A DNA stretch of 37,247 nt. Origin: an uncultured Solibacteraceae bacterium. GTDB lineage: Bacteria > Acidobacteriota > Terriglobia > Bryobacterales > Bryobacteraceae. The notes below the pieces were generated by a model. The model saw only the letters and a program-made list of their open reading frames with translations. It ran no database searches and was not told where the DNA came from. The stretch spans positions 1 through 37,247 of the forward strand of contig CAYZJD010000003.1 of assembly GCA_964478455.1 (NCBI GenBank). The letters are read 5' to 3'. Below, one piece after another: positions 14,825 to 36,920 of this stretch. Made by a program: the position numbers and the translations under genes. The stretch's first letter is position 1. Each line of letters opens with the position of its first letter.

Positions 14825-15700
14825 TCACACGTAGCTAAGCACGAGACCGCGCACGATCAGATACCATCCGTCCACGAGCACGAACAGCAGCAGCTTGAAC
14901 GGCAGCGAGATCACGCTCGGCGACAGCATGCTCATGCCCATCGCCAGCAGAACGTTGGCTACGACCATATCGATGATCACGAACGGCACGAAAACCAGGA
15001 AGCCGATCTGGAAGGCCTCTTTGAGCTCGCTGGTCACAAAGGCCGGAATCAATATCTGGAAGTCGTTCTTGTCGAGCTGGCGCGAGGGCTGGCGGGGCTC
15101 GGAGGGCGCCGGAGGCGCCTGCGCCGCCGCCTGGGCCGCCTGTGCCACGCCAGCGGCTAGCGGCGGGGCCGTCGCCGGCTGCTGTCCCACTTGCGGAGCC
15201 GTTGCGGGCTCCTGTGACGCCGGCGGGGCCGGCCGGCGGTCCAGCCGCGCCGCCAGTTCCATGAACAGAACACGGTCGGTGGCGTGGCTGTGCCGCGACA
15301 GGAATTGCCGCAGAGGCTCCCTGCCCTTCCCGGCCGCGTCGAAGAGGTTTCTTATGCTGCCTTCAGAGAAAATCGATGGACTTGACCCGATGGCGCCCGC
15401 CGCCTGGTACATCTCCCGCGCCACCGGCGTCATGATGAATATCGTCAGGACGAACGCCAGCCCGGTGATGATCTGGTTGGGCGGGACCTGCTGCGTTCCC
15501 AGCGCGTTGCGCAGGATGGAAAGCACCACCGATATCTTGACGAACGACGTCAGCATGATGACCACGAAGGGCGCCAGCCCCAAGGCGCCCAGCACGATCA
15601 CCATCACCACCGGGTTAGTCAGTTGCCCTCCCCCGGATGCCTGCGCCGATGCCGTTCGAGCCAACAGCAGCAAGCCACAGACGGCAAACAAGTTCTTCAT
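14825..15700 (-). CDS. sctR: T3SS export apparatus protein SctR (FliP/YscR family) with N-terminal signal peptide and a low-complexity insertion
   Basis: Conserved LIPAFVTSELKEAFQIGFLVFVPFVIIDMVVANVLLAMGM block. N-terminus MKNLFAVCGLLLLARTASAQA looks like a cleavable signal. A Pro/Ala/Gln-rich insert covers residues about 155-208. Confidence 0.92.
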   Translation of the reverse strand: MKNLFAVCGLLLLARTASAQASGGGQLTNPVVMVIVLGALGLAPFVVIMLTSFVKISVVLSILRNALGTQQVPPNQIITGLAFVLTIFIMTPVAREMYQAAGAIGSSPSIFSEGSIRNLFDAAGKGREPLRQFLSRHSHATDRVLFMELAARLDRRPAPPASQEPATAPQVGQQPATAPPLAAGVAQAAQAAAQAPPAPSEPRQPSRQLDKNDFQILIPAFVTSELKEAFQIGFLVFVPFVIIDMVVANVLLAMGMSMLSPSVISLPFKLLLFVLVDGWYLIVRGLVLSYV

Positions 15701-15713
15701 ATGACTCCCCCGA

Positions 15714-16127
15714 TCAGGTGTCTTTCGAGCGTTTCAGCCCTCTCAGCAGCCGGCTGAAATCCCCCTCCTGCCTGGGTTGCGCGGATTGCTCCTGGAGATA
15801 GGCCTCCAGGCTCTGTGAGTCCAGCCTCGTCAGGTAATGAATGTCACCCTCCGAGGTGCCGACCAGAAAGAAATCGCCGCCGGCTTTGATGATGTAGAGC
15901 GCCTTCCTCGGCTCCAGCGGATAGCGGGCGACCACGCGAATCGGACCACCAGCCAGGCGTTTGAAACCCATCATGCGCGGGATCCAGAACCGCGTCGCCA
16001 CATAGGCCAGAATAAGAATCGCCGCCAGAACCAGCAGCAGCTTGAGATAGTCCAGAATCTGCGTGTTGAGCGCGCCGACCTGCTGGGCCGGGTCCGCGAT
16101 CTGTGACATGAGCAGGATGGTCTTCAC
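15714..16127 (-). CDS. FliO-like single-pass membrane protein
   Basis: 137 aa with one TM helix (LKLLLVLAAILILAYVATRFWI). This is followed by IRVVARYPLEPRKALYIIKAGGDFFLVGTSEGDIHYL, which matches the FliO-family pattern (v..l.Lg.k..l.lv.vg...lLlGvt...i..L). Located between the FliN-like (sctQ) and FliP-like (sctR) genes, as fliO is in flagellar operons. 4-nt overlap with sctQ. Confidence 0.55.
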   Translation of the reverse strand: MKTILLMSQIADPAQQVGALNTQILDYLKLLLVLAAILILAYVATRFWIPRMMGFKRLAGGPIRVVARYPLEPRKALYIIKAGGDFFLVGTSEGDIHYLTRLDSQSLEAYLQEQSAQPRQEGDFSRLLRGLKRSKDT

Positions 16128-17689
16128 GTAACTCTCCAGGAGAGTATCCGGACGCCCAGCCTCCCATCCACATCGACCAGTTCCCCGTCACCCACGATCT
16201 TGCCGTTGATCGCCAGTTGGACCGGGTCCGTCTTCGACCGGTCCAGCTCCAGGATCGTACCGCGCACGAGGCCGTTGGCTTCCGTCAGCGTCAGCTCCTT
16301 CTCGCCCAGCACAACATGGAGGCGGATGGTGAGACGGCTGAAGTCGGGAACCGCTTGCCCGCTCGCCGCCTGCTCGCCCTTGCCGGTATCGTCCATCAAG
16401 ACACTCCTCTCAAAGTAGTTGTCGATCTCCAGAGTCCAAGGGTTGTCCTTCTTCGGCGCTGCCTTCCATCCGCGGCTGAAGTCGCCCGGGAACAGCAGCT
16501 CGCCGTCGGAGGTGAAAAGAAGAATGTCGGAGGGTTCCACCCGCCGCAGTTCGTCCGCGGTCAGTTCCACATAGCCCGTCGATGCCGTGAAGCGGAACGA
16601 AATCGCCGGCGGAAACCGGACTTCGGCGCCGGCGGGCGCCTCTGCCTCCATCGCCGCCAGCAGCTCGTAGGGGAAGTAGAGCCGAAAGGCCTCCGTCAGC
16701 CCGCTCAATTCCATGGAGAACGCCAGCGCGATCCCACGGCTGTCCGGAGCAAACCGTGAGGGCCCAGAGCAGGACGCAAGCGCATACTGGAATGGAAACC
16801 GCAGCCCGCGATTGGCTCTCTCGATCACCGACAGCAAGATGAACTCCAGGAGCCCGTCGTCGGATGGTGTGATGCCCGCTTCCGCTCCCTCGAGTCCGAC
16901 CGGCTGGAGCAGGAGGTTGACGAGCTCCGACAGAAAAGACCGCCGCGCTTCCAGACAAGCCGCCTTCCCGATGGGATGCACCAGCACGAAGTACGCGGCC
17001 GCGCCCGCCGTCGCCGCGCCGCGGAATTCCTCCCAGGCCATCGAGCGGGCCCGCGGAGACGAGACTCGCACTTGCGACTCCGGGATCCACGTCTCCTTGT
17101 ACCTCACCGTGAACGAGTACGGGAACATGGTGAAGCGGTCGCCCGAGCGCAGCACGTGCGGCTGCCGCGCCTGCAATCTCTTCCGGTCCACGTACGTCCC
17201 GAGGGAACTACCGAGGTCTTCCAGCAGGTACTGCCCGTGCTCGAGAAAGATCCGCGCGTGGTTCGTGGCGATCGCCGTCGCCGGCAGAACCAAGTCATTG
17301 TCCGCCCCCCGGCCGATGCGGTACTCCTCCTTCTCAATGACCAGTTCCCGCTCATCCTGTTGAGGCTGAAGGCTGTAAGTCTGCAAGAGCACGAGCTGTC
17401 GCGCCCCCGGACGGGCCAGCAACTCGCCGAAAACCTCCGACACCCACCCTTGCCAGTCCTGATAGCCGGGAAACGAGCGGCAAAACCAGTTCCACAGGCG
17501 GACCTCCTCGCGCGTGTGGGCGGCGAGGCCCTCGAAACGGTAAGGAGGAGGGCCTTTCATGGCGTTGCTATCGGGATCCCTCTCCACGGCGGACGCCGGG
17601 CATCGTTCTCGCGCCCGTGCTTCATCGCCTTCCTTGGCCGCCGCGTCCCTGGCCTCCTCGTTGCTGGCCGCCCCGCTCTTCCCGACCAC
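16124..17689 (-). CDS. sctQ: T3SS cytoplasmic sorting platform protein SctQ (FliN/SpoA C-terminus) carrying an internal FHA domain
   Basis: C-terminal SpoA/FliN domain (LTIRLHVVLGEKELTLTEANGLVRGTILELDRSKTDPVQLAINGKIVGDGELVDVDGRLGVRI). FHA signature at residues about 112-196 (YRIGRGADNDLVLPATAIATNHARIFLEHGQYLLEDLGSSLGTYVDRKRL...GDRFTMFPYSFTV). The start is uncertain: GTG at 17689 overlaps sctP, and ATG at 17560 is the alternative. Confidence 0.85.
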   Translation of the reverse strand: MVGKSGAASNEEARDAAAKEGDEARARERCPASAVERDPDSNAMKGPPPYRFEGLAAHTREEVRLWNWFCRSFPGYQDWQGWVSEVFGELLARPGARQLVLLQTYSLQPQQDERELVIEKEEYRIGRGADNDLVLPATAIATNHARIFLEHGQYLLEDLGSSLGTYVDRKRLQARQPHVLRSGDRFTMFPYSFTVRYKETWIPESQVRVSSPRARSMAWEEFRGAATAGAAAYFVLVHPIGKAACLEARRSFLSELVNLLLQPVGLEGAEAGITPSDDGLLEFILLSVIERANRGLRFPFQYALASCSGPSRFAPDSRGIALAFSMELSGLTEAFRLYFPYELLAAMEAEAPAGAEVRFPPAISFRFTASTGYVELTADELRRVEPSDILLFTSDGELLFPGDFSRGWKAAPKKDNPWTLEIDNYFERSVLMDDTGKGEQAASGQAVPDFSRLTIRLHVVLGEKELTLTEANGLVRGTILELDRSKTDPVQLAINGKIVGDGELVDVDGRLGVRILSWRVT

Positions 17690-18335
17690 GTTCCTGCCGC
17701 GGCGGTTGCGGATCGGACTGCACCTGAACGCTGCCCACTTTCAAACCCCGCATCGTCAGCGCGTGAGCCAGCGTTTCCACGTTCCTGTTCAGGAACTGCG
17801 CCACCTGATCGGACCGCGTGAGGAACTGAACCGAGATCTGGCCCTCGCTCTTTCCGATGTGAATCCGCAAGCCTTCCAGCGTGTGCGACTGAAGCTCGAT
17901 CCGCACTTCGCTCTCGCCCCGCGCGTTGACCGCCACCACTACCTCGCGGACCAGGTCCTGAATCGCCCGGGATTCCAAAAGCCGACTCGGACCCTCCGTC
18001 TTGCGAACCTCCGGTGGAAGCGGCTGTTGCCCCAGGGCGGGCGAAGGCTGCCGCAGGCGTCCCGCTTCTTCCTCGGCCGCAAGACGCGGGCGCTCTTTGT
18101 CGATAGCGCCTTCGAGCAGCTCTGCCTCTCCGGTTCCTTTTTCCTTCTCCTTTTCTTTCGCCTCGCCCGCACCTTCGGCCGTTTCTTTTCCGGAGCCAGT
18201 TTTCAGTTCCTGGCGGGGAGTGGTCTTCTTGGCGAGTACCTTGGCGAATCCGCCCGGCTGCCTGGGCGCGGTCGCCGGTTCATCCTGCCTGGCAGGCACG
18301 GCGGGCTGCGACGGGGGAGTGTCATGCACCTTCAT
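17622..18335 (-). CDS. sctP: SctP / FliK-like length-control and substrate-switch protein
   Basis: 237 aa with a disordered Pro/Glu/Lys-rich N-terminal half. The C-terminal segment EVRIELQSHTLEGLRIHIGKSEGQISVQFLTRSDQVAQFLNRNVETLAHALTMRGLKVGSVQV matches the FliK/YscP C-terminal (T3S4) domain pattern. Canonical position between sctO and sctQ. Confidence 0.65.
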   Translation of the reverse strand: MKVHDTPPSQPAVPARQDEPATAPRQPGGFAKVLAKKTTPRQELKTGSGKETAEGAGEAKEKEKEKGTGEAELLEGAIDKERPRLAAEEEAGRLRQPSPALGQQPLPPEVRKTEGPSRLLESRAIQDLVREVVVAVNARGESEVRIELQSHTLEGLRIHIGKSEGQISVQFLTRSDQVAQFLNRNVETLAHALTMRGLKVGSVQVQSDPQPPRQERGREERGGQQRGGQGRGGQGRR

Positions 18336-18829
18336 GTCGATTGCCTGTTCCGCATGAACAGGATGTTGCCGATCTCATCCTGCTCGAGCGCCTCTTTCCT
18401 TTCGGCCTCCGCGAGAAACCGTCGCTCCAGCTTCGAGCGGTGCTTCGTCAGAATCTCCACCTGCCGCGTACATTCAGCTACCTGTCGCCGGGCGTTCTCC
18501 AGCCGCTCCTCGGCCTCCTCAATGACGATCTTCTGCGAAAAGACCGCATCCCGCGCCGTCTCCACGTCTTGCCCCAAAGCGCGCAGGCGCTCGACGCGCC
18601 GCCGGATCTCGTCTCCCGTCACCGGCCGCTCGCTACCGCCATCGAGCAACGAGCGCCTCAATCCGTCGCGCTGGGCCGCGAGCTGTTCTTCCTTTTTCCT
18701 CAACTCTTCGAGCTTCTGCCTCTCCGCCCGCAACTCCTTCTGGCGCTCGGCAAGCGCCTCCTCGGCTTCCTCCTTCTCGCGGCTCTTCTGATCCAGCAGC
18801 GGCTGGAGGCGGTAACGAAACGTAGCCAC
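18332..18829 (-). CDS. sctO: T3SS stalk protein SctO (FliJ/YscO family)
   Basis: 165-aa coiled-coil protein starting FRYRLQPLLDQKSREKEEAEEAL... like FliJ-family proteins. Positioned right after the ATPase gene. Confidence 0.7.
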   Translation of the reverse strand: MATFRYRLQPLLDQKSREKEEAEEALAERQKELRAERQKLEELRKKEEQLAAQRDGLRRSLLDGGSERPVTGDEIRRRVERLRALGQDVETARDAVFSQKIVIEEAEERLENARRQVAECTRQVEILTKHRSKLERRFLAEAERKEALEQDEIGNILFMRNRQST

Positions 18830-18851: not shown

Positions 18852-20180
18852 TCAATTCATGAACATCTTCTTCAAACCCGCGACCGTGTCCGGGAACCCG
18901 ATCCTTTCGCGCGTTCCCTGCTTCAGAAACGCCGTGATCTCGTCGATCTTCTCAATGGCGTAGTCCACCCGTGCATCGCTCCCCTTCTCGTAAGCGCCGA
19001 GCAGAATCAGGTCCTTCTGCTTTTCGTAAGTGGCCAGCACCTCCCGCATTTTGCCCGCGGCCTTGCGATGCTCGGGGTCGGCCACCGAGCTCATCACGCG
19101 GCTCACGCTATCCAGCGCGCTGATCGCCGGATAGTGGTTCTGCGCCGCCAGGTCGCGCGACAGGATGATATGCCCGTCGAGAATGGAACGCACTTCGTCC
19201 GCGACCGGCTCGTTCATGTCGTCGCCGGCCACCAGCACCGTGTAAAAGGCGGTGATCGACCCCTTGTCCGAGTTGCCCGCCCGCTCGAGCAGCTTCGGCA
19301 GCTCCGCGAACACGGACGGCGTGTAACCGGCGCGCGCCGGCGGCTCCCCGCACGCCAAGCCCACCTCCCGCTGGGCCCGCGCGAACCGCGTCACCGAGTC
19401 CATCATCAGCATGACTTTCTTACCCTGGTCGCGGAAATACTCAGCGATCGCCGTACCGACGTACGCCCCCTTCAGCCGCACCAGCGAGGGCTTGTCGGAA
19501 GTGGCGCACACCACCACCGACCGCTGCATCCCCTCCGGGCCCAGGTCGTGCTCCAGAAAATCCCGCACCTCGCGGCCGCGCTCGCCGATCAGCGTGATCA
19601 CGTTCACCTCAGCCTCGGTGTTTCGCGCGATCATCCCAAGCAGTGTGCTCTTTCCGACACCGGCCGCCGCGAACAGGCCGATCCTCTGCCCCTCCCCGCA
19701 CGTCAGCAGCGAGTCGATGACCCGGATCCCGATCGAGATCGGCTCCGTTACCCGCTTGCGTCGCAGCGGATCCGGCGCATGCCCGTAAACCGGATACTCC
19801 TTATCGCAATGGAGCGGCCCGCGCGTCTCCGTGTCCATCGGTTCGCCGAGCCCGTTGAGCACCCGGCCCAGCAGCCCGTCGCCCACCTTCACCGTCAGGC
19901 AATTGCCCGTCGGCACGACGTCGCTCTGCGGCCCGATGTCCACCAGGTCGCCGAGCGGCATCAGCAGCGCATCGCTGCCCTGAAAGCCGACCACCTCCGC
20001 CTTCACCGGAACGCTCGATCGCGGGTTGTAGATCAAGCACAGCTCGCCGACCCACGCTTCCGGAACCGAGGCCTTCACCAGCAATCCCACCACTTCCTTG
20101 ACCCGGCCCTTCACCTGGACCGGGGCCGCGTGTTCGACCTCTTCCAGATACTTGCCGAGATCGATGACTTTGCTCGCCAT
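18852..20180 (-). CDS. sctN: T3SS ATPase SctN (FliI/YscN family)
   Basis: 442 aa. Walker [16 protein letters not shown] and Walker [14 protein letters not shown], with F1-beta-like organisation. TAATG overlap with sctL. Confidence 0.97.
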
Positions 20181-20809
20181 TACTTTTTAGCCGCTCGCAG
20201 GAGGATCTCCTCCATGCACTTCAACTGCGTCTCCAGTCGCGCATCGATGACTCCCAGGTCGCTCTCCACGATGCACCCGCCCGGAGCCACCGAATCATTC
20301 GCCACAATGTGGATGTCGCGGGAAGACCCCACGACCTCTTCCAGTTTGCCGATGTGGCGCCGCACTTCCTCGAGGTGCGCGGAATTCACCTGGATCGACA
20401 GGGACCGCTCGCGCCGCACACTCCGCAGCGCTTCCCTCACGATGCCGACGATCGTTTCGGGCGCCGACGCAAGCTGCCCGCCAATGATCTTCTCGGCGAT
20501 CCGCACCGCCAGCCGCACCAGTTCCGCCTCGTAATCCTTCTCGAGCTTCGCCGCCGCCTCATGCGCCGAGGCGAGCGCCGCGTTCCACTGGCGCAAGCCT
20601 TCCTCGTAGCCATCCTCTCTGGCTTTGGCCAGGATCGCCTCTCGCTGGCGGCCGGCCTCTTCGAGCACTTCGGCCGCTTGCTGGCGCGCCATCTGCACAA
20701 TGTCCCGCGCCTCCAGCGTGGCCGAGAAGATTTCCTTCTTGACGACCTTCTGCCCGGGTATCGCCGCCGGCTCGGCGGTGGGCTTAGCCTTGATGATCTT
20801 CTCGTCCAT
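20180..20809 (-). CDS. sctL: T3SS stator protein SctL (FliH/YscL family)
   Basis: 209 aa. Charged coiled-coil N-terminal half ([32 protein letters not shown]) and FliH-like C-terminal domain. Immediately upstream of, and overlapping, sctN. Confidence 0.75.
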
Positions 20810-21089
20810 GCGACCCCCGGAGGAACTCGCACGCTGCCCGCCGCAGCCACGGCGGCGCCCCTTCCAGTCCGCCTCCCCAACGATCTCGCGCGGCGCGCCA
20901 AGCCGCCTGCGCCTCCGACTGGCGGAGGCTGCGGAGGCGGTTTTTCCACTCCGCCGGTTCCAGTGCTGCCGCTTCGTCGAGCAATCCGCGAACTACCCTC
21001 TGGCCGGGCTCCGCCAGCAACGCCAGGACCGGCTCCAGCCGCTCCCGACCCTTCAGCAAACCGAGATAGCAGAACGCCGCTTCCCTCAA
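20784..21089 (-). CDS. Hypothetical small protein in the SctK position
   Basis: 101-aa ORF with a 4-nt overlap (ATGA type) with the sctJ stop and a 26-nt overlap with the sctL start. No motif recognised, and shorter than known SctK proteins. Confidence 0.35.
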   Translation of the reverse strand: MREAAFCYLGLLKGRERLEPVLALLAEPGQRVVRGLLDEAAALEPAEWKNRLRSLRQSEAQAAWRAARDRWGGGLEGAPPWLRRAACEFLRGSHGREDHQG

Positions 21090-21907
21090 CGCCGCCCGGC
21101 TCCTTCCGCCACGCTTTCGGCCGGCAACTGGCGCCGCTGCGCCATTGTCGTCAGCTCGTTTTCAAGCCGCCCCACTTTCGCGCGCAGCCGGTTGGCCCGC
21201 AAGGCCAGGCCAATACATCCGAGCCCTGCGATCACGGCCAGCGCCAGCGACACGACGGTGACTTCCTGGTTGCCGAGATACCAGGAGACATCGCGCGGCG
21301 GCACCGTCTTCGGCTCGATCTTCTTGTACACCACCGCCACGTTCTCCGGCTGCAAGCCTTCCACTCCCCGGGCCACAAGACTCCTGATCTCTTCCTCTTT
21401 GAGCGGAAGCTGGCTGCCCTGGTACTTCACCAGCACCGACGCCGTGGTGGGCTTTCTGTCCTCCCGGTCCATCAGCGGGCTGTTCTCCGGCAGCACCACG
21501 TGTACCCGCGCGTCCACCACGCCCGCCACCGACTTCAGGGTCCGGCTGATTTCTCCGGACAGCCCGACGATCAGCCGCGCCTTCTCCTCACCCGCCGTCG
21601 GGATCATCCCGCCGCCGGGGAAGGCTTCCGATAGTCCCTTAACCTTCTCGCGCGGCAATCCGTTCTCCTGAAGGATCCGCCAGGCCAGCACCAGGTTCTG
21701 ATCGCCTCCTTTTACTTTCACCGTCCACAGCGGGCCTTCTTTCTGCTCGCCGCCCACTTCCCGCTCGCGCGCGGCATCCAGCCCGTGCTCCTTGAGCAGA
21801 ACGATGATCTCCTGTGCCTCCTGCTCGCTCAGGCCCGTTTGGAGCTCCTGCTTCAGACAGCCCGTCAGCACCGCCAGGATCAGCACCACCCATAAGCACT
21901 TGCGCAT
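21086..21907 (-). CDS. sctJ: T3SS inner-membrane ring lipoprotein SctJ (YscJ/PrgK family)
   Basis: Start trimmed to the ATG at 21905-21907, preceded by GGGAGAGGAG. Signal peptide and lipobox MRKCLWVVLILAVLTGC. YscJ-like LSEQEAQEIIVLLKEHGLDA, plus a C-terminal TM helix (VTVVSLALAVIAGLGCIGLAL). Confidence 0.88.
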   Translation of the reverse strand: MRKCLWVVLILAVLTGCLKQELQTGLSEQEAQEIIVLLKEHGLDAAREREVGGEQKEGPLWTVKVKGGDQNLVLAWRILQENGLPREKVKGLSEAFPGGGMIPTAGEEKARLIVGLSGEISRTLKSVAGVVDARVHVVLPENSPLMDREDRKPTTASVLVKYQGSQLPLKEEEIRSLVARGVEGLQPENVAVVYKKIEPKTVPPRDVSWYLGNQEVTVVSLALAVIAGLGCIGLALRANRLRAKVGRLENELTTMAQRRQLPAESVAEGAGRR

Positions 21908-21978
21908 GTTCTCCTCTCCCGATGAGGACGCCGGGCCCGGCTCTTCCGACACATCCGAAACCGGCCCGCGCGAGGCAC

Positions 21979-22527
21979 TTATACCTGCGTCTGTAGAATG
22001 GATTTAATTCCGGAATTGACCTGCTCCACCACCTTGCTCACCAACTCGATGTTCTGTGTCATCTGGTAAATCTGCATCTGTACTTTCAGTAAGTCGCGAG
22101 GGTTGTTCGTTCCGGCGAGACCGTTGACTAATTCTCCCGTCGCCTTGAAGTTCGCCTCGATGGTGTTCAGCCGCTGCCGGATCGGATCGAACGCCGATGA
22201 CTTCGGGAGGGCATTCACCTGGCGGGTCAGCCCGTCCATCCTCACCTGCGTGCGCTTCATGTCCACCTTGAACACTTCTCGCGGCGACCGCGAGCGCCCC
22301 GCCTGCATCCGTCTCCGCAGATCGCTTTCCAGGACCCGCGTCTGCTGGGCGGAAACTTGCGTGACCTGCGGAGGGAGATTGTAGGGCACGTTCAGACGGT
22401 CGTCCTGAAGGTTGCTCCGGATCTGGTCGAACTTTGACGGCCCCCCCTTCTCCGTCGCGGCCGTCCCGAAGTCCTGCTTCGGGGTGATCGCCCTCACAGC
22501 GCCTTTGCTGATGATCGGATCCGCCAT
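21979..22527 (-). CDS. sctI: SctI-like inner rod protein (YscI/PrgJ family), enlarged
   Basis: 182 aa. The C-terminus DLLKVQMQIYQMTQNIELVSKVVEQVNSGIKSILQTQV aligns by eye with the YscI C-terminus as I recall it (DLMLMQWSLIRITIQEELIAKTAGRMSQNVETL). Sits directly upstream of sctJ, as in ysc/psc loci. Confidence 0.6.
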   Translation of the reverse strand: MADPIISKGAVRAITPKQDFGTAATEKGGPSKFDQIRSNLQDDRLNVPYNLPPQVTQVSAQQTRVLESDLRRRMQAGRSRSPREVFKVDMKRTQVRMDGLTRQVNALPKSSAFDPIRQRLNTIEANFKATGELVNGLAGTNNPRDLLKVQMQIYQMTQNIELVSKVVEQVNSGIKSILQTQV

Positions 22528-22635: not shown

Positions 22636-22662
22636 TTATCGGCCCACCCGGAGCAAAGTTTC
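22636..22662 (-). promoter_or_regulatory. Sigma-28 (FliA)-type promoter reading into sctI
   Basis: Minus strand reads GAAACTTT-N11-GCCGATAA against the enterobacterial consensus TAAAGTTT-N11-GCCGATAA. The -10 element matches 8/8 and the extended -35 matches 6/8, with exact spacing. The -10 overlaps the last codons and the TAA stop of the FliA-like gene. The sctI ATG lies about 100 nt downstream. Confidence 0.6.
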
Positions 22663-30785: not shown

Positions 30786-30849
30786 ACTCCTTATTCAGTG
30801 TAGCCCGCCGCCTGGGGGCAAGCAAGGACTTGTCGCGGCGCGCCGGCCC

Positions 30850-31095
30850 TCAGTATGGCGGCCCAAGCTGCTGGAACTCGAACCTCCGCGGGTCCAGGCC
30901 GCGGGCCGTGAGCTGGCGGATGCACTCCTCGACCGAGTCGCCGATCGCCTCGATTCGCCGCAGCGGCAGCGTCTCCGGAGTGTACACTTCGAGCGCAACC
31001 GTCTTGCCGACGAGTTGCGTGCGCTCTTCGAGTGTCAGCCGCTCCGGTGCACGGCCGATGACGGTCTTGGGGTCAATCGCGGATGCAAACGGCAT
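30850..31095 (-). CDS. Hypothetical small protein (81 aa)
   Basis: Compact ORF with host-like codon bias. No motif recognised. Confidence 0.45.
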   Translation of the reverse strand: MPFASAIDPKTVIGRAPERLTLEERTQLVGKTVALEVYTPETLPLRRIEAIGDSVEECIRQLTARGLDPRRFEFQQLGPPY

Positions 31096-31175
31096 TGAGG
31101 CGATTCTATCATCGGCCGCGCCGCCATCCGAATGCCGGATGGGCCCATCGGCGGCTCCTGTTAAGATGAACTCGA

Positions 31176-32570
31176 ATGTCCTACGACCTCATCGTTATCG
31201 GGAGCGGTCCGGGCGGCTATGTGGCCGCCGTTCGCGCCGGCCAGTACGGCCTGAAGACCGCCATCATCGAGAAGTCGCCCAAGCTGGGCGGCACGTGTCT
31301 GCACGTGGGCTGCATTCCGACCAAGGCGCTACTCCACACCGCGGACGTTTGGGAGGATCTCCTGCACGGCTCCGAGCAGGGCATCCTCTGCGACAATGCG
31401 CGCCTCGACTACCCGAAGACCATCGAACGGAAGAACCAGGTCGTCGCCAAGCACGCCAAGGGCGTGGAGTTCCTGATGAAGAAGAACAAAGTCGAGTGGG
31501 TCAAAGGCCAGGGCCGCCTGCTCGGCCGCGGCCGCGTCGAGGTCCGCTCGGGCGGCGGCGTCAAGACGCTCGAGGCGAAGCACATCATCATCGCCACCGG
31601 CTCGGAGGCGCGCATGCTCCCCGGGCTCGATCGCGACCCGGAGCGCATCCTCACGAACATCGAGATCCTCGACATGACCGTCATCCCGAAAACGCTGGCG
31701 GTCGTCGGCGCCGGCGCGGTCGGCGTCGAGTTCGCCTCCATCTTCAGCCGCTTCGGATCGAAAGTCACTTTGCTTGAGATGCTCCCTCGCATCGTGCCGC
31801 TCGAAGACGAGGAAGTCTCCAAGGAACTCGAGCGGGTGTTCAAGAAGAAAGGCATCCGCGTGGAAACGGCCGCGAAGGTCGAGAACATCCGGCGCGCCGG
31901 CGCGGGCGTTCAATTCAGCGCCACACTCGCCGGCGGCAAGCGCGAGGAGATGGAGGCGGAGAAGATCCTCATCGCCGTGGGACGCAAGCCGAACACCGAC
32001 AACATCGGCCTCGAAAACACGCGCGTCGAGCTGGATCGCGGCTCCATCAAAGTGAATGAGTGGCAGCAAACGGGCGAGCCGGGTGTTTACGCGATCGGCG
32101 ACGTGGTGGCCGGGACGCCGCTGCTGGCTCACGTGGCCTCGATGGAGGGCCTGGTCGCGGTGGGGCACATCGCCGGCAAGCGGGCGAGGCCGGTCGATCC
32201 GCGGCGCATCCCCAACTGCACTTACACCGAGCCGGGTATCGGCAGCGTCGGCCTCACCGAGGCCAAGGCGCGCGAGCTGGGCTACAAAGTGAAGATCGGC
32301 AAGTTCGGTTTCATGCCGAACAGCAAGGCCAGCATTCTCGGCCGCCACGACGGCTTCGTGAAGGTAGTGGCCGACGAGAAGTACGGCGAGATCCTCGGCG
32401 TCCACATCATCGGCCCGCAGGCCACCGAACTGATCGCGGAAGGGGTGGCGGCGATCGAAGCCGAGGCGACGGTGGAGACGCTGACCAGCACCATTCACTC
32501 CCACCCCACGCTCTCCGAGGCGGTGGGAGAGGCGTTCAACGCCATCTACGGTCTGGCTATCAATGCGTAG
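31176..32570 (+). CDS. lpdA: Dihydrolipoyl dehydrogenase (E3 component)
   Basis: 464 aa. FAD-binding motif DLIVIGSGPGGY, redox-active disulfide GGTCLHVGCIPTK, NAD-binding motif VVGAGAVGVE, and C-terminal HSHPTLSE. Confidence 0.95.
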   Translation: MSYDLIVIGSGPGGYVAAVRAGQYGLKTAIIEKSPKLGGTCLHVGCIPTKALLHTADVWEDLLHGSEQGILCDNARLDYPKTIERKNQVVAKHAKGVEFLMKKNKVEWVKGQGRLLGRGRVEVRSGGGVKTLEAKHIIIATGSEARMLPGLDRDPERILTNIEILDMTVIPKTLAVVGAGAVGVEFASIFSRFGSKVTLLEMLPRIVPLEDEEVSKELERVFKKKGIRVETAAKVENIRRAGAGVQFSATLAGGKREEMEAEKILIAVGRKPNTDNIGLENTRVELDRGSIKVNEWQQTGEPGVYAIGDVVAGTPLLAHVASMEGLVAVGHIAGKRARPVDPRRIPNCTYTEPGIGSVGLTEAKARELGYKVKIGKFGFMPNSKASILGRHDGFVKVVADEKYGEILGVHIIGPQATELIAEGVAAIEAEATVETLTSTIHSHPTLSEAVGEAFNAIYGLAINA

Positions 32571-33213
32571 GTGCGAGCTTCGCGACCTGGGGCGCGTCGA
32601 GTACAGCGAAGCCTTCGAGTTGCAGCGCGCCCTGGTGGAGGAGCGAAAGAGCGGCCGGATCCCGGACCAGTTGCTCATCGTCGAGCATCCCCATGTCATC
32701 ACGCTCGGCCGCAACGGCAAGCCGGAGCACTTGCTGGCCGGAGAGGAAGCGCTGCGCCGGGCCGGCGTCTCGTTTTATCCGGCCGATCGCGGCGGGGACG
32801 TCACCTACCACGGGCCGGGGCAGATCGTCGGCTACCCGATCCTCGACCTCCGCGAGTGGAAACGCGACGTGGTGGCTTACGTGCGCGCCATTGAGCAGGT
32901 GATCATCGGCGCGCTGGCTGAATTCGGCCTCGCCGCCGGACGCATTCCCGGCTGGACGGGCGTGTGGGTGGACGGCAAGAAGATCGCCGCCATCGGCGTT
33001 CACATCAGCCGCTGGGTCACCTCCCACGGCTTCGCGCTGAACGTGGACACGGATCTGCGCTATTTCCAGTACATCGTTCCTTGCGGGCTCAGCCAGCCTG
33101 TCACGTCCATGGCGGCACTGGGCGCGGGCGCGAGCCGCGCGCGGGTCGTCGAGGCGCTCGCCCGCCATTTCGCCGGCATATTCGAGTGTGAGATCATCTC
33201 ATCGGATTTGTAG
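32563..33213 (+). CDS. lipB: Octanoyltransferase LipB
   Basis: 216 aa with LipB motifs (LLIVEHPHVITLGRNG, RGGDVTYHGPGQIVGYPILDL, KIAAIGVHISRWVTSHGFALNV). 8-nt overlap with lpdA. Confidence 0.93.
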   Translation: MRRCELRDLGRVEYSEAFELQRALVEERKSGRIPDQLLIVEHPHVITLGRNGKPEHLLAGEEALRRAGVSFYPADRGGDVTYHGPGQIVGYPILDLREWKRDVVAYVRAIEQVIIGALAEFGLAAGRIPGWTGVWVDGKKIAAIGVHISRWVTSHGFALNVDTDLRYFQYIVPCGLSQPVTSMAALGAGASRARVVEALARHFAGIFECEIISSDL

Positions 33214-33222
33214 GATCTTCGA

Positions 33223-34947
33223 GTGAGTTCGCGGACCGTCCACGCGGTGCTGGAGGAAACGGCGGCGCGCTACGGCCATCTTCCGGCGCTGCACCAGCCA
33301 GAGGGCGGAAAGCACCGCGTGTACACCTGGGCCGAGTACAAGCGGGCGGTGGAAGAAATCGCCGCCGGGCTGCGGCGTCTCGGCGTCCAGAGGGGCGAAG
33401 TGGTGGCGCTCGATGCGGAGACGCGCGCGGAGTTTTACCTCGCCGACATCGGCACGATGACCGCCGGCGCGGTGGCCGCGGCCCTTTACCCCAGCTATCC
33501 CGTGGAAGAGCGCGCCCGCACGCTGCGGGCGGTGCAGGCGCGGGCGGTGTTCGTCGAGGACCCGGGAACGCTTCAAGCGCTGCGGCAGGCGGCCGGGGAG
33601 CCGCTGGAGGCGCACTGGGTCCTTCTCAGCGGACAAGCGGCAGGCGCGATGACGCTCGAGGAGCTGCGAAAGGCGGGGCGAGAAGCGATCGAGTCGGACC
33701 GCGGGCTGGCGGCGTCGCTGAAGGCGGAAGGCCGCGGGTCGGATCCGGCGATTCTGTACCTCACCTCGGGCGCGACCGGAGAGCCGAAGATGGCGCTGGT
33801 GAGCCAGGCGGCGCTGGTGGACAACATCGAGATGGGGCCGAAGGTGCTGTCGATGGGGCCGCGGGACGCGATGGTGGCATGGCTGCCGTCGGCGCACATC
33901 GCGCAGCGGGTGGTGGTCGAGCTGCTCCCCATCCGCTGCGGTGTGCCCGTTTGGTTCGCGGAGAGCCTCGGCAGGCTGCCAGAGACGATCCGCTCGGTGC
34001 GGCCGACGATCTTCCTGGCGCCGCCGCGATTCTGGGAGCGCGTCTACACGACCATCTGCGCGGAGATCAACCGCCGGCCGGCGGTTGTGCGCAAGGCGTT
34101 CTATGGCGCGTTGGGCCTGGGCCTCGAAGCGGCGCGGTTGCGCCTGGAGGGCAAGCCCGTGCCGGGGTGGATGCGAAGCACCCTGCGGCTGGCCGACCGG
34201 CTCATGTTCCGGAAGCTGCGCGCCCGTTTCGGGGGCCGGTTGAAAGTGCCCGTGTCGGGGGCGGCGCCGCTGGGCAAGGACCTGGCGCTGTTCTACGAAG
34301 TGATCGGGATGCCGCTGGTCGAAGGATATGGGCTCACGGAGGGCGGGATCGTGTCGCTCAACCCGATCGAGGCGCCGCGGCCGGGCAGCATCGGCAAGCC
34401 GTTGCCGGGGGTGGACGTGCGGGTGGCGGAGGACGGCGAACTGCTGGTCCGCGGCCCCTGCCTGTTTTCCGGGTATTACAACGACCCGGCGGCGACGGCG
34501 CAGGTGCTGCGGGACGGGTGGCTGCACACCGGCGACCTGGCGGAGATCGACGGCGAAGGCTTCATCACGATCACCGGGCGAAAGAAGGATCTGATCGTCG
34601 CTTCGAACGGCAAGAAGATCTACCCGTCGCGGATCGAGGGCTTGTTCGGCCTGGAGCCGCTGATCAACAACGTACTGCTGATCGGCGACCGGAAACCGTA
34701 CGTGTCGGCGCTGATCACGGTCAACCGGGCGGCCGCGCAGCGCGATGTGGAGGAGGAGGTACGCAAGGCCGTGGCGCGGGTGAACCAGCGGCTGGCGCCG
34801 TTCGAGCAGATCCGCAAGTTCCGGGTACTGGATCGCGACTTCAGCATCGAGGCGGGCGAGCTGACGGCAACGATGAAGCTGCGGCGGAGTCGCGTGCTGG
34901 AGAACTACCGGCGCCTGATCGCGGAGATGTACAAAGACGGCTTGTAG
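33223..34947 (+). CDS. AMP-dependent long-chain acyl-CoA ligase (FadD family)
   Basis: 574 aa with a GTG start. AMP-binding motif LYLTSGATGEPKMALVS, plus EGYGLTEG and GWLHTGDLAEIDGEGFITITGRKKDLI. Confidence 0.88.
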   Translation: MSSRTVHAVLEETAARYGHLPALHQPEGGKHRVYTWAEYKRAVEEIAAGLRRLGVQRGEVVALDAETRAEFYLADIGTMTAGAVAAALYPSYPVEERARTLRAVQARAVFVEDPGTLQALRQAAGEPLEAHWVLLSGQAAGAMTLEELRKAGREAIESDRGLAASLKAEGRGSDPAILYLTSGATGEPKMALVSQAALVDNIEMGPKVLSMGPRDAMVAWLPSAHIAQRVVVELLPIRCGVPVWFAESLGRLPETIRSVRPTIFLAPPRFWERVYTTICAEINRRPAVVRKAFYGALGLGLEAARLRLEGKPVPGWMRSTLRLADRLMFRKLRARFGGRLKVPVSGAAPLGKDLALFYEVIGMPLVEGYGLTEGGIVSLNPIEAPRPGSIGKPLPGVDVRVAEDGELLVRGPCLFSGYYNDPAATAQVLRDGWLHTGDLAEIDGEGFITITGRKKDLIVASNGKKIYPSRIEGLFGLEPLINNVLLIGDRKPYVSALITVNRAAAQRDVEEEVRKAVARVNQRLAPFEQIRKFRVLDRDFSIEAGELTATMKLRRSRVLENYRRLIAEMYKDGL

Positions 34948-34972
34948 CGAGTGGTGAGCGGGCTTGCCGCGG

Positions 34973-35407
34973 CTATGGGTCGCCGGCCACGAACCGTATT
35001 TCCCGGCTGCCGTCGTCGAGAGCCTTCAGCCGCACTTCGATGACGTTGGCGGGCCAGACGTACGGGAAGCGCTCGCCCCATTCGACAAGGACGACCGCGT
35101 CGCGGTCGAGCACGTCGTCGAGGCCGAGAGATTCCAGTTCGCGCGGGGTGTCGATGCGATAGAGATCGACGTGGTAGACCCTGGGCGCGTCGCCGTACTC
35201 GTGGATCAGCGTGAAGGTCGGGCTGGAGACGTCCTCGGGCGCGGCAGCGCCGAGGCCCTTCACGATGCCCTTGGCGAGCGTGGTCTTGCCGGCGCCGAGG
35301 TTGCCGATCAGAAGCACGGTGGCGCGCGAGGGAAGCTCGCGGGCCAATTGCTCGCCGACGGCGATGGTCTCCTCTTCAGACCTCGTCCGGAAGACCTTCA
35401 CACTCAT
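34973..35407 (-). CDS. tsaE: tRNA t6A37 biosynthesis ATPase TsaE (YjeE)
   Basis: Start trimmed to the ATG at 35405-35407 (144 aa). P-loop LIGNLGAGKTTLAKGI, SPTFTLIHEY, and HVDLYR motifs. The upstream 104 residues of the listed ORF overlap nnr in another frame. Confidence 0.85.
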   Translation of the reverse strand: MSVKVFRTRSEEETIAVGEQLARELPSRATVLLIGNLGAGKTTLAKGIVKGLGAAAPEDVSSPTFTLIHEYGDAPRVYHVDLYRIDTPRELESLGLDDVLDRDAVVLVEWGERFPYVWPANVIEVRLKALDDGSREIRFVAGDP

Positions 35408-36920
35408 CCATCGCCTCGGGGAGGAATTCGAGCATGTCGGTGGCGAGCAGCGCCTTCTCGCCGATGGCGGCGGCACCCAGCTCGCCGCAGCGGCCGTGGA
35501 GCCAGACGGCCGCGGCGATGGCGTCTTCGGCGTCGGCGGGGAACTGCGCGAGCAGGCCGGCGATGAAACCGGTAAGGATGTCGCCGCTGCCGCCGGTGGC
35601 CATGGCCGGGGTTCCGGTGGGGTTGATGCGAACGCATCCATCGGGCAAAGCGAGCAGGGTACGCTGCCCCTTGAGGACGAGACGGACGCGCCGTTCCATC
35701 GCAAACGCGCGCGCAACACCGACGCGGTCGGCCTGGACGGCGGAGGAGTTCATGCCGGCGAGACGGCCCATCTCGCCAGGGTGGGGCGTCAGCACCAGCG
35801 ATTCGCCCGCGAAGTTCGCGCCTGCGAGCGCGTTCAGCCCGTCAGCATCGATGACGAGCGGCTGGCGGATGGAGCTCACCAGCGAACGAACAAGCGCGAC
35901 GGTTTCGGGGTGCGTGCCGAGGCCAGGGCCAAGCGCGACGACATCCTTGTTTTCGAGGAGCGCGCGAAGCCGCCCGGTGGCCGACTCCGCAATCGAGCCG
36001 TCCGTCGTTTCCGGCAAGGCCTCGGTCATGATCTCCGGCGCGTGAGACGCGATGACGGGAATGGCGGAGGCGGCCGAAGCGACCGTCGCTAGGCCCGCGC
36101 CCGCGCGCAGGGCGGAGAGCCCGGCCATGGCGGCGGCGCCAGTCTTGCCGCGCGAGCCGCCGATGACCAGCACGTGGCCGAAGTCACCCTTGTGCGCTCC
36201 CGGCGGGCGCGGGCGAAACAGCCGCTGGAAGTCCCGCGTTTCAACGAGCGAGAGGAAGATGGAGTCGTCCTCTTCGTACATCTCCGGCGGGCTGCCGATC
36301 GCACCGACGCGCAGCTCGCCCACGAAGTCGCAGCCCGGCGGCAGCACCTGGCCGATCTTGGGGGCCGTGAACGTCACGGTCGCGTGGGCGCGCACGGTTT
36401 CACCGAGGAGAGAGGGCGCATCGCTCCCGAGGCCGGAGGGGATGTCCACGGCGACGATCTTCGCTCCAGGAAAGCCGCCGTTGATCTCGCGGATGAGTCC
36501 GAGCATGCGGCCCGTGGCCGGCCCTTGAAGTCCGGTGCCGAGGAGGGCGTCGACGACGAGGGTGGCGCGGCGCACCGCGGAGGTGATTTCGCTCGACCAC
36601 GGGCAGCCGCAGGTTTCGAGCATCCGAAAATTGGCCGCGGCGTCGCCGCGGAACTCCGCCGGGTCCGAGGCGAGGACGACGTCGAGCGCCCTCGGACGGA
36701 AGCGGGTGAAGAGCTGGCGCGCGACAACGAAACCGTCGCCGCCGTTGTTCCCTTTGCCGCAAAGGATGACGATGCGCTGAGCGGAGAGCGGATGGAACTT
36801 CTCCTGAAGGAACTCGACGACGCGGTGCCCCGCGTTCTCCATGAGCACCAAGCCGGGAATGCCGAGATCCATAGTGCGGCGGTCGATCTCGCGCATCTGG
36901 GCGGCGGTGAGGACCTTCAT
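35376..36920 (-). CDS. nnr: Bifunctional NAD(P)H-hydrate repair enzyme Nnr (epimerase + dehydratase, YjeF)
   Basis: 514 aa. N-terminal YjeF_N (ILCGKGNNGGDGFVVARQL) and a C-terminal carbohydrate-kinase-like dehydratase domain (GHVLVIGGSRGKTGAAAMA, ATGGSGDILTG). Confidence 0.9.
   Translation of the reverse strand: MKVLTAAQMREIDRRTMDLGIPGLVLMENAGHRVVEFLQEKFHPLSAQRIVILCGKGNNGGDGFVVARQLFTRFRPRALDVVLASDPAEFRGDAAANFRMLETCGCPWSSEITSAVRRATLVVDALLGTGLQGPATGRMLGLIREINGGFPGAKIVAVDIPSGLGSDAPSLLGETVRAHATVTFTAPKIGQVLPPGCDFVGELRVGAIGSPPEMYEEDDSIFLSLVETRDFQRLFRPRPPGAHKGDFGHVLVIGGSRGKTGAAAMAGLSALRAGAGLATVASAASAIPVIASHAPEIMTEALPETTDGSIAESATGRLRALLENKDVVALGPGLGTHPETVALVRSLVSSIRQPLVIDADGLNALAGANFAGESLVLTPHPGEMGRLAGMNSSAVQADRVGVARAFAMERRVRLVLKGQRTLLALPDGCVRINPTGTPAMATGGSGDILTGFIAGLLAQFPADAEDAIAAAVWLHGRCGELGAAAIGEKALLATDMLEFLPEAMDECEGLPDEV

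Follow-up and report, generated by a model that had tools for sequence, protein, structure and literature searches.

An FHA domain within SctQ, a sorting-platform protein of an acidobacterial type III secretion system

How the cytoplasmic sorting platform of type III secretion systems (T3SSs) is attached to the membrane ring and exchanged there is an open structural question. In an uncultured Solibacteraceae bacterium (Acidobacteriota), the platform protein SctQ carries a genuine FHA domain that is selectively maintained. Its gene lies in a stretch of 37,247 nucleotides of contig CAYZJD010000003.1 (the window), where the original prediction, made from the bare sequence, placed the domain at positions 17102-17356 of the minus strand, that is, at residues 112-196 of a 521-residue open reading frame (ORF) or 69-153 of the 478-residue protein; a Pfam match (E=1.3e-17), an AlphaFold2 model and Foldseek comparisons bear out this placement. 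We tentatively suggest, at a little short of an even chance, that the domain is a built-in docking or adaptor module, a remodelled version of a canonical phosphothreonine reader, in a system that has no recognisable SctD/SctK bridge. Residue numbers below refer to the 478-residue form unless the 521-residue ORF is named.

The FHA profile (PF00498) matches residues 123-187 of the 521-residue ORF with a significant score (64.4 bits; cut-off 20.7). The Yop-YscD_cpl profile also scores above its threshold on this region (38.3 bits) and is overlapped by the stronger FHA match. The predicted local confidence (pLDDT) is ~90-95 across residues 70-150, and the modelled region superposes on solved FHA domains as an eleven-strand β-sandwich. 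In Foldseek it matches domains that read phosphothreonine with TM-scores of 0.8-0.9 and root-mean-square deviations (rmsd) of ~2 Å, among them Rv0020c (3po8; TM-score 0.89, rmsd 1.7), GarA (6i2q; 0.88, 1.8) and OdhI (4qcj; 0.85, 2.0), and further matches include GarA 6i2p, Rv0020c 2lc1, EmbR 2ff4 and CEP170 4jon. A phmmer search of PDB sequences returned EmbR and GarA at E=5e-6 and the chlamydial entry 3gqs at 0.02. The latter, which is the FHA domain of the chlamydial SctD homologue CT664, stands at rank 47 of the Foldseek matches (E=1.9e-6, TM-score 0.84); the cytoplasmic domains of YscD, PrgH, MxiG and PscD are absent from the top 50 matches in the PDB, and the sequence search at E<=1 found no SctD except 3gqs. 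Because the nearest matches are canonical phosphothreonine readers and not SctD, the domain is not just an SctD domain that has changed place, and an SctD identity is also disfavoured by the window protein having no transmembrane or periplasmic part.

The protein that carries the domain is assigned to the SctQ/FliM family on sequence grounds, namely by its SpoA domains, its gene position and a putative internal start. The ORF is open to a GTG at 17689 (16124-17689, minus strand, 521 residues), but translation in all likelihood begins at the ATG at 17560, which gives 478 residues, because a 96%-identical protein has 478 residues, orthologs range from 433 to 514, and conservation sets in at that Met. 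The FliMN_C/SpoA profile (PF01052) matches residues 452-518 of the 521-residue ORF (E=1.9e-15), while the NCBIfam SctQ equivalog TIGR02551 covers residues 285-518 of the same ORF with 95.8 bits, a narrow miss of its cut-off of 100.8; model positions 56-300 are matched and the N-terminal 55 are not. Despite this score below the cut-off, orthologs of the protein are named SctQ by NCBI. The gene occupies an SctQ-type position between sctP and the export-gate genes, in an operon with sctL, sctN and sctO. The AlphaFold2 model, built on 24 orthologs, has a mean pLDDT of 83.5 and resolves into helices at 17-29 and 33-47, a β-sandwich at ~49-160, an α/β domain at 164-307, a SpoA-like domain at 321-384, a disordered linker and the SpoA2 domain at 411-475, so that two SpoA-like β modules stand in tandem. 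The top Foldseek match of the protein is the FliM(SpoA)::FliN fusion 4yxc_B (158 aligned columns), and its body also matches FliM/FliN chains from the C ring of Salmonella (8wiw_7, 8vib_M; E ~1e-8) as well as the FliM middle domains 4gc8 and 7dm9. An internal start that makes a short SctQ-C product is a feature of YscQ in Yersinia and SpaO in Salmonella. A corresponding start at Met389, a position at which 21 of 24 orthologs have Met or Val and which follows a Shine-Dalgarno-like AGGAG at a distance of 7 nt, would likely yield a 90-residue product consisting of SpoA2 only.

The FHA domain is N-terminal to both the FliM-like body and the SpoA domains, as had been predicted, but it does not simply stand in front of SctQ. 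A conserved N-terminal motif precedes it, and relatives that have no FHA domain align with the window protein again from the FliM-like domain onward; it is therefore an insertion into SctQ after ~48 conserved residues that form two helices, rather than a simple N-terminal fusion. Residues 14-28 (17477-17521, minus strand) hold a conserved motif, YTREEvxLWNW, which may bear a loose resemblance to the CheY-binding motif LSQxEIDxLL at the N-terminus of FliM; no CheY-like gene is present in the window.

A database search for the same architecture showed that it is not a one-off. All 23 full-length homologs found with a word index of 5.8 billion proteins (34-96% identity) combine FHA and SpoA domains, and those with source names are annotated as SctQ or FliM/FliN family proteins of Acidobacteria. 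An exhaustive profile search returned 279 proteins at E<1e-30, with ~65 full-length representatives of 50%-identity clusters, and a scan of GTDB species genomes gave ~55 full-length matches, nearly all in metagenome-assembled genomes (MAGs) of Acidobacteriota (Terriglobia). The carriers belong to Bryobacterales, Terriglobales, 'Ca. Solibacter', 'Ca. Sulfotelmatobacter' and 'Ca. Sulfopaludibacter', besides a single MAG of Schekmanbacteria and a few that are unclassified. Altogether at least 125 distinct FHA sequences occur in this setting. In one related locus (L066) the FHA-SctQ gene is split into two ORFs. In a rough neighbour-joining tree built from SctN, lineages with and without the FHA domain are intermixed, a pattern that would fit one gain of the domain or several. 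The FHA-SctQ architecture is thus clade-wide and has more than 100 automatic FHA+SpoA annotations in databases, yet literature searches on FHA with SctQ or T3SS in Acidobacteriota and Myxococcus found no description of it, in agreement with the prediction that no such fusion has been described.

The same data bear on the explanation that a mis-assembly, a frameshift or a read-through joined a separate FHA gene to sctQ. Such an artefact is ruled out for all practical purposes, since the 125 distinct sequences come from independent assemblies and share one continuous architecture with the SctQ motif ahead of the FHA domain, and the guanine-plus-cytosine fraction is uniform (0.643 in the FHA region and 0.645 in the window). 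Conservation likewise informs the idea that the domain is a structural relic, kept for folding or spacing only and binding no ligand. A partly degenerate pocket would suit this explanation, which we nevertheless regard as very improbable: mean pairwise identity is 58% in SpoA2, 41-45% in the FHA domain, 35% in SpoA1 and 33% in the FliM-like domain, which makes the FHA domain the second most conserved region, and its surface loops hold the motifs GR, LEDLGSxLGT and FPY, invariant among orthologs of 34-96% identity.

The phosphate contacts that define FHA domains are made by an Arg of the β3-β4 loop and a Ser of the β4-β5 loop (10.1101/2020.09.22.308627). The signature that had been taken for a textbook one is present in the window protein as RIGRG, ATNHA, GSSLGTYV and GDRF, but the Ser is replaced by Ala98 and the loop Asn by Leu120, so that of the classical pocket set of Arg, Ser, His and Asn only half is left. 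In HMMER alignments Ala98 is paired with EmbR S326 and with the Ser in SRRH of GarA, and Leu120 with EmbR N348 and the LNGT motif of GarA. The structural His and the loop Asn are also nearly universal in FHA domains (Rad53 FHA1, EmbR, Rv0020c), and in the model domains of Rad53 FHA1 and Rv0020c the loss of either the phosphate-contacting Ser or the loop Asn abolishes binding of phosphothreonine peptides.

Among the 125 distinct sequences the pocket Gly is invariant (125/125), and the Arg (121/125) and the His (122/125) are nearly so. The expected conservation of the phosphothreonine-binding residues does not extend further: the Ser position holds G in 38, A in 32, S in 27, T in 23 and other residues in 5 (S/T 40%, G/A 56%), and the Asn position is mostly hydrophobic (L in 73, N in 19, M in 9, I in 7, others in 17; Asn 15%). 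The full canonical signature GR...SxxH...SxNGT is retained by 11 distant members (including loci L054, L056 and L060), and it is also seen in L058 and in the Schekmanbacteria protein (L059). The pocket is remodelled in the window clade, where Arg84 and His101 are kept and Ala98 and Leu120 take the places of Ser and Asn. Since deep-branching relatives keep a complete canonical pocket, the ancestral SctQ FHA domain was probably phosphothreonine-dependent, and with Ser and Asn replaced, ligand binding in the window clade is predicted to be weakened, altered or phospho-independent. Separately, three distant FHA-SctQ proteins (P0139, P0150 and P0156) of 668-913 residues have Gly-Thr in place of Gly-Arg with S-x-x-H and S-x-N-G-T retained; a fusion to the upstream gene could account for their long N-terminal extension.

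The genes around the T3SS bring phosphorylation into consideration. A receptor Ser/Thr kinase is encoded directly upstream of the operon, and among 40 related loci with enough flank, a kinase ORF, recognised by a match to the N-terminal kinase part, adjoins the sigma gene in 21, while 7 more have weaker kinase-like ORFs. A second FHA protein, tail-anchored and with a canonical pocket, is encoded after sctV, a place that it keeps in L085, L031, L045 and others; its chain ends 2-3 residues after the transmembrane helix, unlike that of SctD. The T3SS is embedded in a neighbourhood of Ser/Thr kinase and FHA genes, and no specific link between the kinase and the SctQ FHA domain was obtained.

One explanation therefore holds that the SctQ domain is a phosphothreonine switch: the receptor kinase, with its periplasmic FGE-sulfatase-like part as the sensor, would phosphorylate a T3SS component or partner, the FHA domain would read the phosphothreonine, and an external signal would in this way gate platform assembly or secretion, by analogy with PknD and CdsD in Chlamydia and with PpkA and Fha1 in type VI secretion. 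The nearness of the domain in sequence and fold to proven phosphothreonine readers, the almost universal Arg and His, the full pocket of distant relatives and the kinase that directly precedes the operon, as it does in about half of the related loci or more, all agree with such a switch. Furthermore, a kinase-adjacent subclade has Ser or Thr at the equivalent of Rad53 T106 and Lys after the Ser position, and in Chlamydia the kinase PknD phosphorylates the FHA-bearing SctD homologue CdsD (PMC2765968). The phosphate-contacting Ser, however, is Ala here and Gly or Ala in more than half of the family, with a mostly hydrophobic residue for Asn, relatives with a canonical pocket lack a kinase within 10 kb, the FHA domain is retained in a clade of 12 loci where no kinase adjoins, and the kinase may serve the canonical tail-anchored FHA protein instead. 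On balance the switch is possible but doubtful.

The gene order of the operon, from the sigma factor through the rod-like protein, SctJ, a ~100-residue protein, SctL, SctN, SctO and SctP to FHA-SctQ, FliO, SctR, SctS, SctT, SctU and finally SctV, is conserved in the relatives examined; it is colinear with that of flagella, and the content is injectisome-like (Table 1). TPR chaperone-like proteins and small glycine-rich proteins are encoded between sctU and sctV. A Pfam scan, which covered the minus-strand ORFs in 2108-30734 except 5059-5421, 14545-14811 and 13838-14611, and selected ORFs of both strands in 30830-36920, gave no match to a secretin, to SctK or to the periplasmic domain of SctD among the scanned ORFs.

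The slot between sctJ and sctL is of particular relevance. It holds YscK in Burkholderiales loci, a 476-residue FliG-like protein with a FliG_C match above threshold (25.6 bits) in Archangium (L079, 3235-4662), and ~330-residue proteins with weak FliG_M/FliG_C matches in Pyrinomonadaceae and in the clade with canonical FHA pockets (L080 1506-2492; L060 3487-4470). In the window clade the slot contains only the conserved ~100-residue protein, which was found in 42 loci, and the bridge between ring and platform therefore appears to be reduced or different there. This protein has no Pfam match; its hhalign comparison with the FliG-like neighbours gave E=0.0075 at a probability of 5%, and that with SctK gave E=0.3. 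A database search returned only two sequences, and the AlphaFold2 model (pLDDT 54) was too poor for a fold search. The SctJ lipoprotein has an unusually long cytoplasmic tail (residues 252-288; 21086-21196, minus strand), in which ~45 orthologs conserve an amphipathic helix, R.R.QR.KI..LE.QL. The tail is a candidate docking site for the ~100-residue protein or for SctQ.

Along the chain, the FHA domain follows the two N-terminal helices and precedes the FliM-like middle domain. We suggest that this end of SctQ would face the membrane and that the domain would tether the sorting platform (SctQ, SctL and SctN) to a membrane-proximal partner. In doing so it would take over the job that the SctD FHA-like domain and SctK perform in classical injectisomes, and any phospho-control that is left could be supplied by the receptor kinase and the canonical tail-anchored FHA protein of the locus. 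Several points weigh against this docking proposal. The SctQ domain is far closer to canonical phosphothreonine readers than to the FHA-like domains of SctD. The absence of SctD and SctK is one of profile searches, and a very divergent analogue, for instance the ~100-residue or the tail-anchored FHA protein, could be present. The membrane-facing orientation is argued by analogy from what is known of FliM and SctQ, and the docking partner would be a hypothetical one. The alignment of the SctJ tail contains no conserved Thr, for which reason the tail was rejected as a phosphothreonine target. In the clade of 12 related loci no kinase occurs within 10 kb, and a comparison of pocket residues with kinase adjacency gave no signal free of confounding by clade.

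A stricter version, in which the platform would dock to the membrane machine through the SctQ FHA domain in a manner that depends on Thr phosphorylation by the co-encoded receptor kinase, is distinctly unlikely in our estimate; if true, it would make this the first type III system to have its pod assembly under the control of a transmembrane Hanks kinase. It is also conceivable that the domain is a receptor for cargo or chaperones, that is, an added surface with which secreted proteins or their TPR chaperones, and no membrane-ring component, are selected. Sorting platforms of injectisomes bind chaperone-substrate complexes, and the products of the locus include several TPR chaperone-like proteins as well as small proteins, rich in glycine and evolving fast, whose C-termini are needle-like. 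Nevertheless, the domain is far more conserved than these putative substrates, most of which are undetectable across loci, and judging from known structures it is inserted in the part of SctQ/FliM that would face SctK/FliG; we consider a cargo receptor improbable. The docking proposal also has a practical side: with the FHA domain fused to SctQ and no detectable SctD or SctK, the interface would be simplified, with fewer partners and a covalent linkage suited to structural work.

Table 1. Coordinates of the T3SS locus, of the parts of SctQ and of further FHA proteins. Positions are those of the window unless a related locus is named.
Feature	Position	Strand	Basis or remark
Receptor Ser/Thr kinase, 841 aa	23494-26019	minus	Hanks kinase domain 33-280, transmembrane helix 517-539, FGE-sulfatase-like domain in the periplasm 602-829
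Sigma-70 family factor heading the T3SS operon	22636-23358	minus	Pfam; position conserved
SctI/SctF-like rod or needle family protein	21979-22527	minus	Pfam T3SS_basalb_I and needle_F, sub- or near-threshold; PF09392 on orthologs
SctJ lipoprotein, C-terminal transmembrane helix 231-251, 37-aa cytoplasmic tail	21086-21952	minus	Pfam; tail alignment
Conserved helical ~100-aa protein in the SctK/FliG gene slot	20784-21089	minus	Found in 42 loci
sctL	20180-20809	minus	Pfam
sctN	18852-20180	minus	Pfam
sctO	18332-18829	minus	Pfam
sctP, FliK/HpaP-like	17622-18335	minus	Pfam
sctQ, 478 aa	16124-17560	minus	Pfam FHA and FliMN_C; TIGR02551 95.8 bits; start from ortholog lengths and onset of N-terminal conservation
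SctQ N-terminal segment, residues 1-48	17417-17560	minus	Motif LPxYTREExxLWNW, helices 17-29 and 33-47; alignment, AlphaFold2
SctQ FHA β-sandwich, residues 49-160	17081-17416	minus	Pfam, AlphaFold2, Foldseek, phmmer against PDB
SctQ FHA Pfam core, residues 80-144	17129-17323	minus	Pfam
Gly83-Arg84, β3-β4 loop, phosphate-contacting Arg	17309-17314	minus	Conserved
A98-T99-N100-H101, counterpart of S-x-x-H (Ser to Ala, His kept)	17258-17269	minus	Alignments to EmbR and GarA
G117-S-S-L120-G-T122, counterpart of G-S-x-N-G-T (Asn to Leu)	17195-17212	minus	EmbR alignment
SctQ FliM-middle-like α/β domain, residues 161-310	16631-17080	minus	Foldseek FliM matches; TIGR02551 coverage
SctQ SpoA1-like domain, residues 311-385	16406-16630	minus	AlphaFold2 strands; Foldseek 4yxc_B
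Putative internal start for SctQ-C	16394-16408	minus	AGGAG 16404-16408, 7-nt spacer, ATG of Met389 16394-16396
SctQ SpoA2 domain, residues 411-478	16127-16330	minus	Pfam FliMN_C E=1.9e-15
fliO-like	15714-16127	minus	Pfam
sctR	14825-15700	minus	Pfam
sctS	14545-14811	minus	ORF and synteny
sctT	13705-14535	minus	Pfam
280-aa protein between sctT and sctU	12780-13622	minus	ORF in operon
sctU	11628-12689	minus	Pfam
sctV (FHIPEP)	6747-8912	minus	Pfam E=3e-233
Second FHA protein, tail-anchored by a C-terminal transmembrane helix	4532-5125	minus	Pfam FHA E=1.6e-13; canonical pocket GR, SREH, SSNGS
~590-aa FHA-transmembrane-protease proteins in related loci	L006 133-1902; L008 27-1808; L045 200-1993; L049 88-1863
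The same, continued	L036 3095-4867; L041 3052-4794; L043 3095-4864

Several further observations concern the surrounding genes. The receptor kinase has an additional region of ~200 residues between its kinase domain and transmembrane helix; ORFs that combine kinase and FGE-sulfatase domains adjoin the sigma gene in 7 of the 40 related loci, and in 2 more the two parts are separate adjacent ORFs. At the edge of several related loci, proteins of ~590 residues are encoded beside the kinase, with a canonical N-terminal FHA domain, one transmembrane helix and a periplasmic trypsin-like protease. They have an SctD-like outline, but on account of the protease domain they were rejected as SctD candidates, and the window holds no homologue of them. 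After the second FHA protein come three DUF4384 proteins with signal peptides and then a gene for a caspase (Peptidase_C14) with TPR, which is cut off at the left edge of the window (module 3-5125, minus strand). On a 90%-identical contig (L085, 10001-17327) this module extends further, to a CsgG/FlgT_C-like lipoprotein of the outer membrane and another caspase, and a CsgG-type channel beside a secretin-less T3SS is an intriguing combination.

Within the operon, SctR contains an Ala/Pro/Gln-rich low-complexity insertion of ~60 residues relative to the FliP profile (291 residues against a model of 191 positions), which is common to some orthologs (290 residues in L001, 243 in L003). Three paralogous small proteins (5920-6267, 8950-9417 and 10025-10696, minus strand) have a glycine-rich N-terminal half and a needle- or rod-like C-terminal helix ending in ...IR. 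Each is encoded near a TPR chaperone-like gene and has no Pfam match; a possible role for the three is that of secreted subunits, of a filament or a rod, in a system that looks needleless.

The coexistence of canonical and half-degenerate phosphothreonine pockets in one family offers a natural series for the passage from phospho-dependent to phospho-independent FHA binding, with the SctD domains thought to be at the phospho-independent end point. Acidobacteriota, which are among the most abundant soil bacteria, widely carry Myxococcus-like, secretin-less T3SSs; a survey of 2012 listed non-flagellar T3SSs in Chlamydiae, Proteobacteria and Verrucomicrobia only (Abby and Rocha 2012). An acidobacterial T3SS wired to Ser/Thr kinase and FHA signalling has a bearing on microbial interactions in soil. 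In addition, the presence of a FliG-like protein in non-flagellar T3SS loci is noteworthy in its own right.

Among known systems, the flagellum shares with the window the colinear order fliF-G-H-I-J-K ... M/N-O-P-Q-R-flhB-flhA, FliO included, and the middle domain and C-terminal SpoA of SctQ are FliM-like in structure. Unlike flagella, the window has no fliG, fliF, rod, hook or mot genes among those scanned, and it has SctJ, YscO-like, HpaP-like and needle-family genes, tandem SpoA domains and a likely SctQ-C start. FliM is not known to carry an FHA domain. The system rather resembles the basal 'Myxo' non-flagellar T3SS, or 'needleless' T3SS* of Myxococcus, which is secretin-less and contains FliO (PMC3459982, PMC10433427, PMC12248157; Abby and Rocha 2012, Thiery et al. 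2022), as does the window system, whose secretin-less state comes from the profile scan. The rough SctN tree also groups the acidobacterial systems with the myxobacterial ones and apart from classical injectisomes. The SctQ homologue of Archangium (L079), in contrast, is without an FHA domain, its locus has the FliG-like gene between sctJ and sctL, on the myxobacterial side an FHA domain is found on a sigma-54 activator instead, and the Myxococcus xanthus system is reported to have SctD.

Two systems combine kinases and FHA domains with secretion. In the type VI secretion pathway (PpkA/PppA/Fha1, TagH), a transmembrane Hanks kinase and an FHA protein are encoded with the secretion machine, but the machine is a different one, and in it Fha1 acts as a scaffold protein of its own, its pocket intact; the NCBIfam TagH profile matches the window SctQ weakly (44.8 bits against a cut-off of 120). 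In Chlamydia, as in the window, a canonical-type FHA domain in a structural T3SS component goes together with a Hanks-type Ser/Thr kinase. There, however, the domain is on the membrane-ring protein CdsD, itself the substrate of PknD, whereas the window has it on the pod protein in the cytoplasm, with a pocket that is partly degenerate.

The classical interface of the SctD FHA-like domain, SctK and SctQ (PscD-PscK, PrgH-OrgA-SpaO, YscD-YscK-YscQ), which had been named from the outset as the relevant comparison, proved an apt one (10.1101/2020.09.22.308627), with an FHA fold at the junction of the inner-membrane ring and the SctQ pod, as is proposed here. Classical injectisomes carry the fold on the membrane-ring protein SctD and possess an SctD periplasmic domain and SctK; in the window it is a covalent part of SctQ, and neither of the other two is detectable. 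The SctD domains have neither the Arg nor the Ser that would contact the phosphate (10.1101/2020.09.22.308627), while the SctQ domain keeps Arg and His. By analogy, we infer that the system would work most like this junction, with the FHA domain on the opposite side of the interface. If the stricter, phosphorylation-dependent version of docking, unlikely as it is, were true, an FHA fold at the junction of ring and platform would be an ancient feature of non-flagellar T3SSs, carried in the end by opposite sides of the interface, by SctQ here and by SctD in classical injectisomes.

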